The translations under genes were made by a program, and so were the position numbers. The notes beneath the pieces were generated by a model, which searched no databases, was not told the DNA's origin, and saw only the letters and a program-made list of their open reading frames with translations. Of a DNA stretch of 64,000 bases, positions 3,453 to 44,892 are shown piece after piece. The DNA is from Christensenella sp. (GTDB lineage Bacteria; Bacillota; Clostridia; Christensenellales; CAG-138), in NCBI GenBank assembly GCA_034926785.1, contig JAYFQU010000017.1:50794-114793 (forward strand). Direction: 5' to 3'. Numbering within the stretch: position 1 is the stretch's first letter; each line of letters opens with the position of its first letter.

Positions 3453-3797
3453 TTACACCTCCCTGTGTCGTAATTTTAGGGATTTGCGATACGACTCTTG
3501 AATGGAACGCAGCCCCGCTTCCATCGTTAAAAACAGAAGTTCCGCCTGTTCCAGCTGCTTCCCGCGCGTATCGCCCGCAAGAACGCAGTGCATTCCTTCG
3601 GCCTCGTCAATCGAGACGGCGACTTCTTCGCCCTCCTTCAATCCGAGCACCTGAACCAGACCGAGATAACAGGTCTGCGTGAGCGCGGAAATCGCGCTGC
3701 AGACGATGTCCTCCCCCGCTTCGCCATAGCCGGCATGTCCGGTTGAGGTAAACCCGACCGTATTGCCGCCTCTGCGAAGCATTGTCACCGTTACCAT
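3453..3797 (-). CDS. prp: Ribosomal-processing cysteine protease Prp
   Basis: 114 aa. Contains GHAGYG...DIVCSAIS and sits between rplU and rpmA as in other Firmicutes. Confidence 0.9.
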
Positions 3798-18861: not shown

Positions 18862-18948
18862 GCCGGTGTGATGGAATTGGCAGACGTGACGGACTCAAAA
18901 TCCGTTGGTAGCGATACCGTGTCGGTTCGAGTCCGACCACCGGCACCA
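18862..18948 (+). tRNA. tRNA-Leu (anticodon CAA)
   Basis: Acceptor stem GCCGGTG/CACCGGC. Anticodon stem ACGGA/TCCGT with loop CTCAAAA. Long variable arm, GGTTCGAGTCC T-arm, and an encoded CCA. Confidence 0.95.
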
Positions 18949-23893: not shown

Positions 23894-23999
23894 TGCACAT
23901 ATTTTACACAACATTCACAGCAGCCAGTTTTGTTACGTAGTATAATCTATTCGGTGAGTGATGCCCGCTCGCCTCGGATCTCTTTGGAGGATGGTAATT

Positions 24000-24317
24000 A
24001 TGAAGTTTATCTTTCGCCTGATCGGCATATTGGTGGTATTAATCATTCTGCTGATGGCCGTTTTGACCTATCTGGACAGCAAGGATCTGCTCAGCGGAAA
24101 GCTGGAGCGGCTCATCAGTTCCCTTCGCGTGCTCGGAAAGCAGGCCTGGTCGGAGATTCTGCTGTTCATGCAGGACTCCGGTATTGCAGAGGATGCAGCC
24201 GGCCTCTTAGATCAAGGCGCGAATTATCTAAGGGATAGCGTAGACCCCAACGCAACCAGCAAGCCCGGCTCGGAGGCCTTTTTTACCCCGATTCCGGAAG
24301 CTACCCCGGCAGGATAA
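24000..24317 (+). CDS. Hypothetical small membrane-anchored protein
   Basis: ATG 24000 follows GGAGG. 105 aa with one N-terminal TM helix (FRLIGILVVLIILLMAVL). Confidence 0.55.
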   Translation: MKFIFRLIGILVVLIILLMAVLTYLDSKDLLSGKLERLISSLRVLGKQAWSEILLFMQDSGIAEDAAGLLDQGANYLRDSVDPNATSKPGSEAFFTPIPEATPAG

Positions 24318-24342: not shown

Positions 24343-24380
24343 AAAAAGGCCTTCCGCACGAAAAAGCGGAAGGCCTTTGT
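24343..24380. terminator. Bidirectional terminator (end of the HEPN operon and of the + strand small gene)
   Basis: AAAGGCCTTCCGC-ACGAAAAA-GCGGAAGGCCTTT, a 13-bp stem with T-runs on both strands. Confidence 0.78.
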
Positions 24381-24398: not shown

Positions 24399-24857
24399 TT
24401 AGGAGGGAATCTTTGGAATTTCGATTTCAGGCAGGAACGAACGCAGCCACGCTACCGTCTCCACCGTTTTTCGATGGAGTTCCAGCGCAAGCGAGCGATC
24501 AACAAACCGGCTGGTAATGTTTTTGTAGGAAAACGGATAGTCGGACATGTAGTAGAACATGACATCCATTAAAAAGTCCTCGCACTCATTCTTCCGCTCT
24601 TCCAGCCGTATCTGGTCTGTTTGCGTACGGAATGCTTCGCTCGACGTAATCTTGGAGAAAAGAAAATTAACGTTGTGTGTCTTGGGCGGTTCCGCCTCCA
24701 TAAAGTAGACATACATGCCTTTGAGCTGCCGTTCGACCGCCTGCTGACTCAGATACGCAACATAGACCCACCGTTCGCCCTTGATCAGCGCGTCAATGGT
24801 ACCAAGATCATAGTCCGACAACATCAGCCAATATCCGCATTTTTCCTGTTTGTTCAT
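24399..24857 (-). CDS. HEPN domain protein
   Basis: 152 aa. YLSQQAVERQLKG...PKTHN matches the HEPN (PF05168-type) helix pattern. Its ATG overlaps the HD-GYP stop (ATGA). Confidence 0.8.
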   Translation of the reverse strand: MNKQEKCGYWLMLSDYDLGTIDALIKGERWVYVAYLSQQAVERQLKGMYVYFMEAEPPKTHNVNFLFSKITSSEAFRTQTDQIRLEERKNECEDFLMDVMFYYMSDYPFSYKNITSRFVDRSLALELHRKTVETVAWLRSFLPEIEIPKIPS

Positions 24858-25783
24858 ACGCTTTCCGCCCCTCCTTCATCCAGAGCGCCACTCTCCACGA
24901 GCCGGTTGAGTACGTTGGTGATTCTGCTGTCAAATTCTTCCGGCAGAGCAATCAGCTCCGCCGCCGCCTGGGAAAACGTTTTTACAATGTTATAGCCGCG
25001 GTTGGTCGTCATTGCGTCAAACACATCCGCAACGGCGACAATTTGCGAGGAGAGGCTGATGTCCTCCGCCCGAAGCCCGCGCGGATAGCCCGATCCGTTG
25101 AGCCGCTCATGATGGTTTCTCGCGATTTCAGCAATCTGCTCGCCAAACTTTGGAAGCAGCATCCGCCCGCTGTCCACCGGATGACGCAGAATATAACGCA
25201 GTTCCGCATGCTCCAGACGGTCCGGCTTTTGCAGGATCTCAACCGGGACAAAGCACTTGCCAACGTCGTGAAACAGCGCCGCAACGGCGAGATCGTCCCG
25301 CGGGATCGGCGGGCAATCCTCCTGCATCGCGTCGTAGAGCGCAAGAGAATAATACAGCACTGCCTTGCTGTGACGATATGTATAGTGGTCTTTTTCGTTC
25401 ACGCGCTTCAGCAGCTCATTCAGGCTCTCTTCAAACCGGGAAACAGCCTCAAATGCCGGGCAGTTTGTCACATAGACAATCTGCGTGTCGCCCTGCATCC
25501 GGATGGGGACTTCGCGCTTGAGATTGGAAACCGAAAACGAATCCCCGGGGCCGAGGGTGACGAGGCCGTCGTCCAGCGCCAGCTCCACAACGCCCTCATG
25601 AACAAAAAAAATCTCCGTTGCGTCCGGATCGCTCGCCGGATATAGCCAAACAAGAGACTCGCCATTGATGCGATGGAGCATGACCTCCAGATCGCCCTGC
25701 TTGGCCAGCAGTTCCGTACCAGATTCATTTTCCGCGGCGGATCCAGCCGCTTCGGATCTTTTGTTAAATTGTATGCCGTCCAT
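24854..25783 (-). CDS. Cupin-domain / HD-GYP-domain phosphohydrolase
   Basis: 309 aa. N-terminal cupin-like barrel (EIFFVHEGVVELALDDGLVTLGPGDSF), then HD-GYP motifs HSKAV, LFHDVGK, HHERLNGSGYP and DVFDAMT. Confidence 0.88.
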   Translation of the reverse strand: MDGIQFNKRSEAAGSAAENESGTELLAKQGDLEVMLHRINGESLVWLYPASDPDATEIFFVHEGVVELALDDGLVTLGPGDSFSVSNLKREVPIRMQGDTQIVYVTNCPAFEAVSRFEESLNELLKRVNEKDHYTYRHSKAVLYYSLALYDAMQEDCPPIPRDDLAVAALFHDVGKCFVPVEILQKPDRLEHAELRYILRHPVDSGRMLLPKFGEQIAEIARNHHERLNGSGYPRGLRAEDISLSSQIVAVADVFDAMTTNRGYNIVKTFSQAAAELIALPEEFDSRITNVLNRLVESGALDEGGAESV

Positions 25784-25822: not shown

Positions 25823-26164
25823 CTAAATAGGACGAAGCTCCAATCCGTACGCTTCTATTTCCTCTATAATACCACACGGCGTAGCTAATTCATAGGTGTG
25901 AAATGGCTGAACTTGTATGTCCAGTTCCGGATTGACGCAAATGCGCGCCAGCTCGCGGTATTGCCGCAGCAGGCGCGCATCCAAACAATCAAAGAAAACC
26001 GCGAGATCGATATCGCTGTCACAATCGGCGCAGTGCTTGGCATAAGAACCGAAAAGAACGACCTTGCTGACCTGTTCAAGGGCATAAATTCCGCGGCAGA
26101 CGCCGCGCATCAGCGCGGCATGCTCGCCGAATAATCCCTCAAAATCGCTGCAGACCTCGATCAT
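25823..26164 (-). CDS. Minimal nucleotidyltransferase (MNT, Pol-beta superfamily)
   Basis: 113 aa. Contains VVLFGSYAK (GS motif) and DSDIDLAV (DxD). RBS AAGGAG lies 5 nt before the ATG. Confidence 0.85.
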   Translation of the reverse strand: MIEVCSDFEGLFGEHAALMRGVCRGIYALEQVSKVVLFGSYAKHCADCDSDIDLAVFFDCLDARLLRQYRELARICVNPELDIQVQPFHTYELATPCGIIEEIEAYGLELRPI

Positions 26165-26202: not shown

Positions 26203-26583
26203 TTAGAGCCGAATGATGCGCAGCGGATCAATCAATACCGTTTGACCATCAATATAATACGTAGTATACTCGCAAACAACAATCGCGCCAATAGAATTCG
26301 CATAGGCCATCACGCCCGAGACGATGGTATCCACCGTAGCCATCAGCCGGGGTACATCATTCCAGGGCGTCAGCTGCGCAACCTTGACCGCGCGCTCAAT
26401 CTGGCGGTTGGCCTGCTTGACCATGCGCTCCAACACCTGAAACTGTGCGTCGGTATAGCGCTCGCTATGGCCGGAAACCGTCGCGTAAGAAGCGCCGTAG
26501 TTCCCCTCCGCGTTTGCCACGCCAGGAATAATCGTCACAAGCAGCAGTACGCAAATCAGGACGCTCATCCATCTCTTTTTCAT
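26203..26583 (-). CDS. Hypothetical secreted protein
   Basis: Start at MKKRWMSVLICVLLLVTIIPGVANA (ATG 26583, RBS GGAGGGG). Signal peptide plus ~100 aa with no recognised domain. Confidence 0.65.
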   Translation of the reverse strand: MKKRWMSVLICVLLLVTIIPGVANAEGNYGASYATVSGHSERYTDAQFQVLERMVKQANRQIERAVKVAQLTPWNDVPRLMATVDTIVSGVMAYANSIGAIVVCEYTTYYIDGQTVLIDPLRIIRL

Positions 26584-26640
26584 TGTTTTCCCCTCCGAAA
26601 CGAATTTTGTTTCGGTTTGGAGTCCCCAGCGACGAAGCAA

Positions 26641-26676
26641 TAAAAAGACAGCTTGCCCTTTATTGCCAAGCTGCCA
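26641..26676 (-). terminator. Intrinsic terminator in the riboswitch expression platform
   Basis: Minus strand reads GGCAGCUUGGC-AAUAAAG-GGCAAGCUGUC followed by UUUUUAUU. It lies about 60 nt upstream of the RBS of the 26583 gene. Confidence 0.6.
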
Positions 26677-26724
26677 AAGATTCGTACGCTGCGCGAAAAC
26701 AACTTCTGTTCGGCAGGACACTCA

Positions 26725-26825
26725 ATTGGCAACTGGCTGCCATCGGCGCATCTCTTTGCGCCATTAGGCCCTTTAGCTTTGCGTCACCCGCTTTCACGGG
26801 TTTTGCCTTTTTCGTGGGAGTTGCT
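26725..26825 (-). promoter_or_regulatory. c-di-GMP-I (GEMM-I) riboswitch aptamer, candidate
   Basis: Minus strand reads ACGAAAAAGGCAAAACCCGUGAAAGCGGGUGACGCAAAGCUAAAGGGCCUAAUGGCGCAAAGAGAUGCGCCGAUGGCAGCC. It shows GGCAAA-CC, a GAAA-capped hairpin, the GACGCAAAGC junction and a CCUAAU//GAUGG receptor-like loop, in the order seen in Vc2. Confidence 0.75.
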
Positions 26826-26840
26826 CCTAAACCTGGGCTT

Positions 26841-26869
26841 AAAATATCACATTACTATTACATTGTCAA
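26841..26869 (-). promoter_or_regulatory. Promoter of the riboswitch-controlled operon
   Basis: Minus strand reads TTGACA, then a 17-nt spacer ending in TGA, then TATTTT (extended -10 TGnTATTTT). It lies in an AT-rich tract just upstream of the aptamer. Confidence 0.5.
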
Positions 26870-27183
26870 TATACTAATTATATCTTTCTTGTGATTTTAT
26901 GTGACTTTTATCACTTTTTCGCGTCGTTGCTTCCTATTTTTCTCAAAAATACGCACCATTTCTAAATCGTATCCGACGATCCCGCAGTCCATAATGTTAC
27001 ATCGCACTTCATAATCGATCGCGGATCGTGTAGACAACAGTTCAAAATACCAGTCATATGCGTTTCGAGCACCCCATGATCGCCCCTGTTTCGGATGCTC
27101 CTGCCTTTGAAAATGGATCGGCGGTTCTTTCTGAAAACGCGGGCGCGTGGTATAATTTCTTCTATATGATCGGGAGGTGCGGT

Positions 27184-42181: not shown

Positions 42182-42859
42182 TTAGATTCTCCAGTGCCGG
42201 AGAAACAGCTGTGTGGCCTCGCCCTTGGGCTCCCGCAGCACCTGCATGGTCTCCCCGTCCTCCACGATTCTACCGTCCGTCAGGACAATCGTGCGGGTCG
42301 AGAGCCGAAGCGCCTGTGTCGGCGCATGAGAGGAGAACAGCAGCGTGCAGTTCGTCGCCTCGCAGTAGTCCTGTAAAACCCGCTCCAAGCGGTCTACGGC
42401 CTGAATATCCGCGCTCGCGGTCGGTTCATCCAGCAGCAGCAGCCGGTGCGGCCGCGCGATGATGCGCGCGAGAGCCATGCGCTGCACCTCGCCGCCGGAG
42501 AGGCGCTTTCCGCGCGCGGCTCTGAGGTGAATCAGCCCTACGCTCTCCAACGCTTCGCGCATCCGCTGCCGCTGATTTGGCAGCCCCTCCAGCGCCAATA
42601 GAACGTTCTGTTCAACGCTAAGATCAAAAGCATAGGGCTTTTGCGGCAGATAGGCAATCTCCCTTCTGCTCAGTCCCAAGAGAGAAACGGTCCCTTCGTC
42701 CGCTAGGAGCGTTCCCGCGAGCAGGCGAATCAGCGTGCTCTTGCCGGAACCGTTTGGGCCGATCAACGCAACCCGCTCGCCCTGCGCAATCTGCAGCGAG
42801 GGGATATCCAGCACGCAGCGCGCATCATAACGCTTTTTCAAGCCTTTGATCTCCATCAT
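42182..42859 (-). CDS. tupC: ABC transporter ATP-binding protein (TupC-like)
   Basis: 225 aa. Walker A GPNGSGKST, signature LSGGEVQR, Walker B LLLDEPT. Overlaps the permease gene by 4 nt. Confidence 0.75.
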   Translation of the reverse strand: MMEIKGLKKRYDARCVLDIPSLQIAQGERVALIGPNGSGKSTLIRLLAGTLLADEGTVSLLGLSRREIAYLPQKPYAFDLSVEQNVLLALEGLPNQRQRMREALESVGLIHLRAARGKRLSGGEVQRMALARIIARPHRLLLLDEPTASADIQAVDRLERVLQDYCEATNCTLLFSSHAPTQALRLSTRTIVLTDGRIVEDGETMQVLREPKGEATQLFLRHWRI

Positions 42860-43548: not shown

Positions 43549-44595
43549 TCAGCCCTCCGCGCCGCCGTTCGCTTCAAAGGCAAGGAATGTCGCTTTATCC
43601 GAGAGAATATAGGCCTCCAGCTCGTTTGCCATGGTCAGGCAGACGCCCATGCCCGCGTTGCTGGAAAGATACCAGTCGCTATACGCCGCAACGCTCGCCA
43701 CATCCGTGGTGATCCCCAGCGACTCCGGCCACAAGGAGACTTCCTTCGTGTGCGTGCCGCTCTGATCCCCGCGCGAAACGAAGGGGAACTTACCCTCGGC
43801 GATGCGCGCAAACGCGTCCTTCACATTCGCCGCCTCAGCGCACTTTGCCGGATCGTCATTCGGACCGACCAGCACAAAATAGTTATACATAAACGTAAGG
43901 CGCTCGGCGCTGTAGCCGTCGAGCAGCTTGGCGTATCCGTCCGCAACGAACTTTTCTTCCTGAGACTTGCTGTGTACGAGAATGAGATCCGCGTTGCCCA
44001 TCGTTGCCGCCGCGATGGCCTTGCCGGTTCCGGCGGAGGATACCTCCACCGTATAGCCATACTTCGCCTCAAACATCGGCAGCAGATAGGTCAGCAGTCC
44101 GCTGTCGTTGACCGATGTGGTCGTGGAGAGGCGAATCGTCCTTGTCGCGTCCGTCGCATCCGGGATCGCCACCGAGGAGACCGGTTTATCAGGGGTCAAG
44201 GTGAAGAGTGCCTCGCCGTATTGGGACACACCGTATCCGGAGATCAGCTGTGCGGCCTCATCGCTCATGAGCCAGTCGATGAGTGCCTTTGCCCCGATGG
44301 TATTGATCGCAACCCCGCTCACCGCTTTGCCGTCCGCGTCCTTGAAGGGCGCCGCGTCATTCACGGCGATGACGGTATAGTTGTTCTTCATGTCGTCGTC
44401 CTGCTCGAGCAGAATCTTGATGCCAAGGCCGTTCTCGCTCACCGCTAGGGTGGGCGCGGCGTCCTGTGCCGCGGCTATGACAATCTCCGGCGTAACATCG
44501 GCAGAGGGCGTCCCGCTCGCGGCCGGTTTTGCGCATCCAAAGACGGATAACACAACCAGCAACGCAATTGCTACCGCAAAAAAGCGTTTTCTCAT
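43549..44595 (-). CDS. tupA: TupA-like oxyanion (tungstate) binding lipoprotein, apparently permuted
   Basis: Start at MRKRFFAVAIALLVVLSVFGC (lipobox) at ATG 44595 with RBS AAAGGAG. Contains RLSTTTSVNDSGLL (TTTS motif) and FVSRGDQSGTH. The family's usual C-terminal segment is found at the N-terminus. Confidence 0.75.
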   Translation of the reverse strand: MRKRFFAVAIALLVVLSVFGCAKPAASGTPSADVTPEIVIAAAQDAAPTLAVSENGLGIKILLEQDDDMKNNYTVIAVNDAAPFKDADGKAVSGVAINTIGAKALIDWLMSDEAAQLISGYGVSQYGEALFTLTPDKPVSSVAIPDATDATRTIRLSTTTSVNDSGLLTYLLPMFEAKYGYTVEVSSAGTGKAIAAATMGNADLILVHSKSQEEKFVADGYAKLLDGYSAERLTFMYNYFVLVGPNDDPAKCAEAANVKDAFARIAEGKFPFVSRGDQSGTHTKEVSLWPESLGITTDVASVAAYSDWYLSSNAGMGVCLTMANELEAYILSDKATFLAFEANGGAEG

Positions 44596-44669
44596 GATCT
44601 GATTCTCCTTTTTGATACAAGGAAAAGGCTCCGACTCGTGCCAGACCGCGCCAAATTCAAAATCGATAT

Positions 44670-44768
44670 GCGATCTCCTTTGCAAATTCGGCAGGCACGC
44701 CCGTTTCCAGCCGTACCCATTGACCAACGCGGCCTCGCGGTATTCGGTCGCGATGATTCGGAGATTTT
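44670..44768 (-). promoter_or_regulatory. Moco/Tuco riboswitch-like leader, candidate
   Basis: Minus strand reads AUCUCCGAAUC...GGCUGGAAACGGGCGUGCCUGCCGAAUUUGCAAAGGAGAU. An AUCUCC/GGAGAU closing helix is present, together with CUCCGA, GCCUGCC and AAAGGAG blocks that I associate with the Moco RNA motif. It lies about 75 nt upstream of tupA. Confidence 0.45.
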
Positions 44769-44892
44769 CCTTTTTCTTTGTTGTCTTCCGGAGTATGAAA
44801 AAAGCCGGCGTCTGCCCAGGATATGACGTTTTGTTCGCCCACGAGCACCGGATTCTCATCGCCGCCGGGAGATAGTCAACAGCTGTATTATT

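Follow-up and report, generated by a model that had tools for sequence, protein, structure and literature searches.

The window (the whole 64-kb stretch of DNA that was analysed) carries on its minus strand an operon of four genes, g1 to g4, which spans about 2.5 kb and has intergenic gaps of 38 nt and 39 nt followed by a 4-nt overlap. The 5' leader of this operon holds a c-di-GMP-I (GEMM-I) aptamer, with a conserved promoter upstream of it and a conserved terminator and a mutually exclusive antiterminator downstream. In the direction of transcription, the features are:

26864..26869, minus strand: -35 hexamer TTGACA, from a consensus scan
26841..26849, minus strand: extended -10 element TGaTATTTT after a 17-nt spacer, with TG ahead of the second hexamer, from a consensus scan
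26817..26827, minus strand: small hairpin GGAG-CAA-CUCC near the 5' end, past the expected transcription start and ahead of the aptamer, read from the sequence
26725..26817, minus strand: c-di-GMP-I (GEMM-I) aptamer, from the full RF01051 model, covariation and a GAC contact trio
26795-26792, minus strand: GAAA tetraloop on the first hairpin of the aptamer, from the sequence
26726..26737, minus strand: antiterminator 5' arm GCCAGUUGCCAA, from unconstrained MFE folds, overlapping the 3' strand of the aptamer base helix and the tail
26665..26677, minus strand: antiterminator 3' arm UUGGCAGCUUGGC, complementary to GCCAGUUGCCAA and containing the terminator 5' arm
26675-26667/26655-26647, minus strand: intrinsic terminator (attenuator) GGCAGCUUG/CAAGCUGUC with an 11-nt loop, from the sequence and relatives
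26646-26639, minus strand: U-tract UUUUUAUU of the attenuator, the whole terminator being 26639..26675
26581..26596, minus strand: g1 Shine-Dalgarno sequence GGAGGGG (26596-26590) and ATG (26583-26581), from the sequence and homologue starts
26203..26583, minus strand: g1, 126-aa protein with a signal peptide, of no known family
25823..26164, minus strand: g2, minimal Pol-beta/MNT-type nucleotidyltransferase (PF18765, 38.9 bits; PF01909, 32.9 bits)
24854..25783, minus strand: g3, cupin and HD-GYP phosphodiesterase, predicted (HD_5, 109 bits; HD, 64.9 bits; weak Cupin_2)
24399..24857, minus strand: g4, HEPN-domain protein (PF05168, 34 bits), its start overlapping the g3 stop by 4 nt
24345..24378, minus strand (read 24378-24345): strong intrinsic terminator at the operon end, 13-bp stem, about 20 nt past the g4 stop

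The promoter had been proposed in a first-pass annotation of this DNA as TTGACA-17-TATTTT; it was confirmed and extended by the TG ahead of the -10 hexamer. When 46 upstream regions of related loci were aligned, the -35 hexamer was unchanged in 45, the one exception (L032) being a downstream-type copy, and the pattern TGnTAnnnT was kept at fixed spacing in the relatives. Transcription would start near 26834 (minus strand), and we propose that the leader belongs to a sigma-A-type transcript. The same annotation had placed the aptamer about 15 nt downstream of the promoter: it does lie downstream, but the RNA string quoted there starts (26815) 25 nt past the -10 hexamer, which ends at 26841. From the expected start of transcription, the distance is about 17-19 nt to that string and about 17 nt to the aptamer. 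The small hairpin GGAG-CAA-CUCC may stabilise the 5' end; in distant relatives another hairpin, GGAUAAG...CUUAUCC, is located at its position.

Genes of the operon and their distribution

The g1 start codon lies 142 nt downstream of the aptamer, with the Shine-Dalgarno sequence 7 nt upstream of it. A longer GTG ORF (26203..26721, minus strand) was ruled out as gene 1 because all 41 aligned g1 homologues begin at MKK. The g1 product is predicted to be a small secreted protein. It had no match in Pfam, NCBIfam or PADLOC, its 110 homologues are all unnamed, and a protein of GCA_008761695.1 matches it with 100% identity. A C-terminal motif, CEYT.Y.DGQ.V..DPLR, is invariant in the 41 aligned homologues. 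The AF2 model (pLDDT 77 overall and 83-98 in the core, residues 41-126) consists of a helical hairpin and a four-strand meander, and its comparison with the PDB gave no fold match (best E 0.95).

The GS...SDxD motif of g2 is invariant in 49 homologues. An HD-GYP protein had been noted in this operon in the first pass, and the third downstream gene, g3, indeed encodes one (HD_5/HD-GYP, 109 bits): the motifs HDVGK, HHE, GYP and DVFDAM, the second and third within the stretch HHERLNGSGYP, are invariant in 69 homologues. Based on the HD_5/HD domain and the metal-binding motifs, g3 is predicted to act as an HD-GYP c-di-GMP phosphodiesterase, with c-di-GMP as its presumed substrate. A motif search of the window found no credible GGDEF or EAL protein, and g3 is its only HD-GYP gene. 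The HEPN-domain protein g4 is the best conserved protein of the cassette, with 84% identity where g1 has 66%, and its FYYMSDYPFSY motif and R117 are invariant. No match to g4 was found in PADLOC or NCBIfam, and inspection of the homologue alignment by eye revealed no conserved His 4-6 residues past R117, as the Rx4-6H motif would have it.

The MNT-type motif of g2 and the HEPN domain of g4 are also found in the HepT/MntA type VII toxin-antitoxin systems, but here g2 and g4 are split by the cupin-HD-GYP gene g3, and g2 scored 37 bits against the MntA equivalog, below the cut-off of 60. With a sub-threshold MntA match, non-adjacent genes and no conserved Rx4-6H motif, the assignment of g2 and g4 to this type of system was rejected. 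In the literature searched, no link of a c-di-GMP riboswitch with HEPN/MNT genes was found, a weak negative of limited scope.

The hairpin at 24345-24378 is located between the minus-strand operon and a convergent plus-strand ORF (23958-24317) and is flanked by A-rich and T-rich runs; it may terminate transcription both ways.

A scan of a genome collection with the HD-GYP protein g3 recovered 76 loci, at 84% down to about 36% identity, which were mainly from Christensenellales/Christensenellaceae and from MAGs of other Clostridia. The order aptamer-g1-g2-g3-g4 was kept in 48 of the loci (species-level genomes).

The aptamer and its ligand-contact positions

When the whole 64-kb window was scanned with cmscan against all 4227 Rfam families, RF01051 (c-di-GMP-I) matched at 26817-26725 on the minus strand over model positions 1-87 of 87, with 79.8 bits against a gathering score of 35 and an E value, scaled to the 64-kb window, of 4.6e-14. 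An above-threshold match to this family at about 26.73-26.82 kb on the minus strand was what the first-pass annotation had expected. Besides RF01051, a permissive search of 26500-27000 (E up to 10) gave nothing better than E of about 2, and the sub-threshold matches to TarA, snoRNAs and GlmZ near the aptamer (E 2-8) were discarded as chance. The c-di-GMP-II family, which has a different fold, was matched neither in the window at its gathering score nor in 26500-27000 at E up to 10 in the cmscan of the 4227 families. Elsewhere in the window, the scan placed a molybdenum/tungsten cofactor riboswitch (RF01055, 56 bits against 36) at 44659-44775 on the minus strand. It is located just ahead of genes for a periplasmic binding protein (PBP_like_2) and an ABC ATPase (43549-44640 and 42182-42859, minus strand), in keeping with an ABC transporter of the molybdate/tungstate type. 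The window has a single tRNA gene, a tRNA-Leu (anticodon CAA) with a long variable arm, at 18862-18948 on the plus strand.

The RNA string quoted in the first pass (26815-26735) is identical to the minus-strand sequence, and the hallmarks that had been listed for it were all found: GGCAAA at 26807-26802, the first stem ACCCGU/GCGGGU capped by a GAAA loop, the junction GACGCAAAGC, the second hairpin GGCGCA/UGCGCC atop a CUAAU//GAU internal loop, and the closing GGCAGCC. The RF01051 match exceeds this string at both ends, by 2 nt on the 5' side (to 26817) and by 10 nt on the 3' side (to 26725), and the base helix of the aptamer continues past GGCAGCC, with AGUU (26734-26731) pairing with AGCU (26778-26775). 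All five helix segments of the two-hairpin GEMM-I architecture are present. The GAAA tetraloop is shared by the window and 80 of 81 relatives; the receptor-type internal loop CUAAU//GAU aligns to the consensus CUAA//uAuG, and docking of the tetraloop into it is predicted.

The aptamer was also conserved at its position. RF01051 was matched at the same offset in all 13 close loci, and a covariance model (R1) built from the relatives' aptamers gave 81 matches on searching. Of the 65 related Firmicute loci whose upstream DNA is retained, about 63 had the aptamer ahead of the cassette according to RF01051 or R1, and none of the seven non-Firmicute HD-domain matches had it there. One R1 match (L002:10434-10515; 22 bits, E 0.008), from which the contact nucleotides are missing, was disregarded. 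Across the 81 related aptamers, 94.9% of the cells in the helices were paired and 17 of 23 pairs were changed on both sides; none of 500 shuffles reached the observed values, and slid partners paired in only 21-39% of cases. Fitting of the alignment to the model gives pairing some advantage, but the margin is large.

The ligand-contact positions are G26807, A26780 and C26736, the equivalents of G20, A47 and C92 in the Vc2 aptamer. The Vc2 numbering was mapped onto the aptamer through the Vc2 sequence, and the spacing of 27 nt between G20 and A47 in Vc2 equals that of their equivalents here. This mapping is backed by the placement by Rfam of two relatives with a GGC trio, L049 and L060, in RF03167 (c-di-GMP-I-GGC). 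Of the two guanines of c-di-GMP, one is recognised in Vc2 by G20 at its Hoogsteen edge and the second is Watson-Crick paired to C92 (PMC6140456); A47 contacts the ligand backbone (PMC5888326). The cGAMP-sensing GEMM-Ib RNAs have an A in place of G20 (PMC6140456). No adenine is present at this position in the window, and the aptamer is not of the GEMM-Ib type, because G rather than A occupies the specificity position 26807. It is not a GGC variant either: 26780 is an A, and RF01051 was retained over RF03167 in clan CL00126. Read from its sequence, the GAC trio is the canonical c-di-GMP set.

Two other explanations of the aptamer were weighed. That it resembles the family by coincidence, or is a degenerated remnant without regulatory function, has next to no chance of being correct, and nothing was found in favour of it: the RF01051 E value of 4.6e-14, the retention of the aptamer ahead of the same cassette in loci with protein identity as low as about 36%, the compensatory changes in 17 of 23 pairs, and the conserved promoter and terminator all contradict it, and this explanation was rejected on the conservation and covariation data. 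The aptamer might instead sense 3'3'-cGAMP or another dinucleotide, as a GEMM-Ib-like or variant RNA. At equivalent positions in the relatives, A was found at G20 in 10 of 81 and G at A47 in another count of 10 of 81, and HD-GYP enzymes that degrade cGAMP are known. The window itself, however, has G26807 together with A and C at the A47 and C92 equivalents, RF01051 beats RF03167 in the clan competition at the site, and wild-type Vc2 with its G20 binds c-di-GMP at picomolar affinity and cGAMP only at about 10 uM (PMC6140456). This second explanation is very unlikely. Family membership, the contact nucleotides, covariation, the conserved promoter and terminator and conserved synteny are all observed at this locus, and 26817-26725 (minus strand) is almost certainly a functional GEMM-I c-di-GMP aptamer, for which we infer ligand binding. 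This supports the GEMM-I interpretation of the first pass, through the RF01051 score, the upstream conservation in relatives and the helix covariation.

Expression platform and switch direction

The attenuator hairpin begins about 50 nt downstream of the aptamer, and in most relatives a hairpin with a U-tract is found about 165-185 nt from the aptamer start. A pattern-based terminator scan missed the attenuator because its loop limit was 8 nt and the loop here has 11 nt; the sole hit of that scan was a plus-strand artefact within the first hairpin of the aptamer and was rejected. In an alignment of 36 leaders, the terminator was 96% paired, and in three of its pairs both sides had changed. The antiterminator was 91.4% paired in these leaders, against 12-50% when slid. 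No covariation of the antiterminator was seen across the 36 leaders because both arms are nearly invariant, and its support is thus a matter of conservation and thermodynamics only.

We analysed folding at the decision point with the 171-nt transcript that is present as the polymerase gets to the U-tract. In the free RNA, the antiterminator had a probability of 0.98 and the terminator of 0.02; with the aptamer locked, the probability of the terminator was at least 0.999, and the gap between the states was 5-7 kcal/mol. The same two-state folding was found in 21 of 36 relatives. The remaining 15 did not show this pattern in the simple model, and 6 of those form the terminator even when free. 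Longer RNAs were less clean: an equilibrium fold of the 182-nt RNA with only positions 1-87 locked left a residual 5-bp antiterminator and a terminator probability of about 0.002, and another longer equilibrium fold with the aptamer enforced gave 0.19. The less clean result of the 182-nt and 260-nt equilibrium folds is due to post-decision RNA that pairs with the U-tract; these folds include such RNA and were therefore replaced by the 171-nt analysis. A clean switch was seen only at the co-transcriptional decision point.

From these features, we propose the following mechanism. Without ligand, GCCAGUUGCCAA (26737-26726) would pair with UUGGCAGCUUGGC (26677-26665) to form the antiterminator, which would sequester the terminator 5' arm and let RNA polymerase read through to g1-g4. 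When c-di-GMP is bound through G26807, A26780 and C26736, the base helix would be locked and the antiterminator precluded, so that the hairpin GGCAGCUUG/CAAGCUGUC and its U-tract (26675-26639) would stop transcription once about 195 nt have been made. Such a layout belongs to an OFF switch, because the 3' strand of the aptamer is complementary to the 5' arm of the terminator and not to its 3' arm. Termination logic in which high c-di-GMP shuts the operon is likely. If g3 degrades c-di-GMP, the OFF switch would create positive feedback, in which low c-di-GMP yields more phosphodiesterase. A phosphodiesterase that is switched OFF by c-di-GMP runs counter to the simple homeostatic expectation, which is a counterpoint to this model.

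A genuine aptamer could also act as an ON switch, or on translation or mRNA stability instead of premature termination. GEMM-I riboswitches of both the ON and the OFF kind are known, locking positions 1-87 alone gives no clean terminator in the 182-nt equilibrium folds, 15 of 36 relatives depart from the simple model, and a separate hairpin, CCGAAAC...GUUUCGG, adjoins the Shine-Dalgarno sequence. However, the Shine-Dalgarno sequence lies about 130 nt from the aptamer and has no complementarity to it, the complementarity of the aptamer 3' strand to the terminator 5' arm is that of an OFF switch, and locking the aptamer lifts the terminator probability from 0.02 to at least 0.999 at the decision point. 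We therefore consider an ON switch, or an action on translation or mRNA stability, unlikely. The model as a whole, a GEMM-I c-di-GMP aptamer in a sigma-A leader that would serve as a transcriptional OFF switch of g1-g4, appears probable, with binding and direction both being predictions.

Comparison with known riboswitches and variant aptamers in relatives

Compared with Vc2 and RF01051, the window aptamer has the same GAAA tetraloop on the first hairpin and the same receptor-type internal loop on the second, the same GGCAAA...GACGCAAAGC junction and the same G/A/C contact trio. Its second hairpin departs from that of Vc2 in distal sequence (GGCGCA/UGCGCC, 6-nt loop); the host, an uncultured Christensenellales-like Firmicute, and the terminator/antiterminator platform about 50 nt downstream are further differences. 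The GEMM-Ib aptamer Gs1761 of Geobacter shares the fold and the Rfam family/clan, and the second-copy aptamers of some relatives described below have its A20-type signature, whereas the window aptamer has G, not A, at 26807 (PMC6140456).

The class I riboswitches of C. difficile, such as Cd1 upstream of flgB, are likewise from a Firmicute and are intrinsic-termination OFF switches, as is predicted here (PMC11477304). Several of the C. difficile examples also resemble the present one in that the gene next to the riboswitch, the first under its control, codes for a small protein without known domains. Unlike these, the window operon encodes an HD-GYP enzyme of c-di-GMP turnover along with an MNT/HEPN pair. 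The usual targets of c-di-GMP riboswitches are processes under c-di-GMP control and not the genes of c-di-GMP metabolism (PMC11477304, a C. difficile review), which makes the HD-GYP operon a somewhat unusual target.

The window riboswitch is a well-supported addition to a well-known class and is detectable by a standard Rfam scan. The aptamer class is a textbook one with thousands of representatives already known; as a routine case detected in a routine way, the riboswitch offers little new insight by itself. What interest remains comes from the cassette, which is uncharacterised, from the feedback logic and from relatives whose aptamers at equivalent positions are specificity variants (GGC, AAC). 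The analysis places a firmly supported c-di-GMP riboswitch, with its promoter, expression platform and operon bounds, in a Christensenellales-like lineage of anaerobic bioreactors that is uncultured. Four conserved genes become predicted targets of c-di-GMP regulation, one of which has no recognisable fold and two of which form an unusual split MNT/HEPN pair around the HD-GYP gene. The predicted OFF switch on a phosphodiesterase constitutes a testable positive-feedback circuit.

Aptamers with a GGC trio, in which G occupies the A47 equivalent, were located at the orthologous position upstream of the cassette in nine relatives (L034:3903-3989, L041:1299-1387, L042:4384-4472, L049:4044-4145, L050:4050-4134, L055:4073-4154, L058:4023-4108, L060:3216-3299 and L069:2743-2824; locus number and positions). 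Only L049 and L060 among these pass the RF03167 gathering score or win over RF01051. With the GGC trio at the orthologous position, the leader may have changed its ligand-contact chemistry within the lineage.

In Sedimentibacter, three loci (L064:4299-4374, L066:891-966 and L067:4241-4317) carry AAC-type aptamers upstream of the HD-GYP gene; g1, g2 and g4 were not detected at these three loci.

A second GEMM-I aptamer is located directly after the HEPN gene in distant relatives (L026:6465-6554, L028:6466-6555, L031:6428-6517, L032:1402-1493, L036:6426-6510, L038:4905-4989 and L039:6430-6515); the window has no such copy. At the Vc2 G20 position these second copies have the A that characterises cGAMP-sensing or bispecific GEMM-Ib RNAs. 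In L031, the second aptamer precedes Tad/Flp-pilus genes (Peptidase_A24, TadE, Tad and RcpC/CpaB).

All these observations could be joined in one reading, which is speculative and rather unlikely to hold in full. The aptamer would be the conserved gate of an undescribed c-di-GMP module, composed of a secreted 100-residue protein without a recognised fold and an MNT and HEPN pair split by a cupin-HD-GYP protein, and OFF wiring of the phosphodiesterase would produce a bistable state locked at low c-di-GMP. Shifts of the leader trio from GAC to GGC or AAC would have wired the module to different dinucleotides across the Christensenellales, including cGAMP-type aptamers beside Tad pilus genes in Firmicutes.

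Aptamers also occur in pairs at two other loci: L062 carries two in tandem (2023-2281), and L046 carries two on opposite strands, about 160 nt apart (3453-3779).
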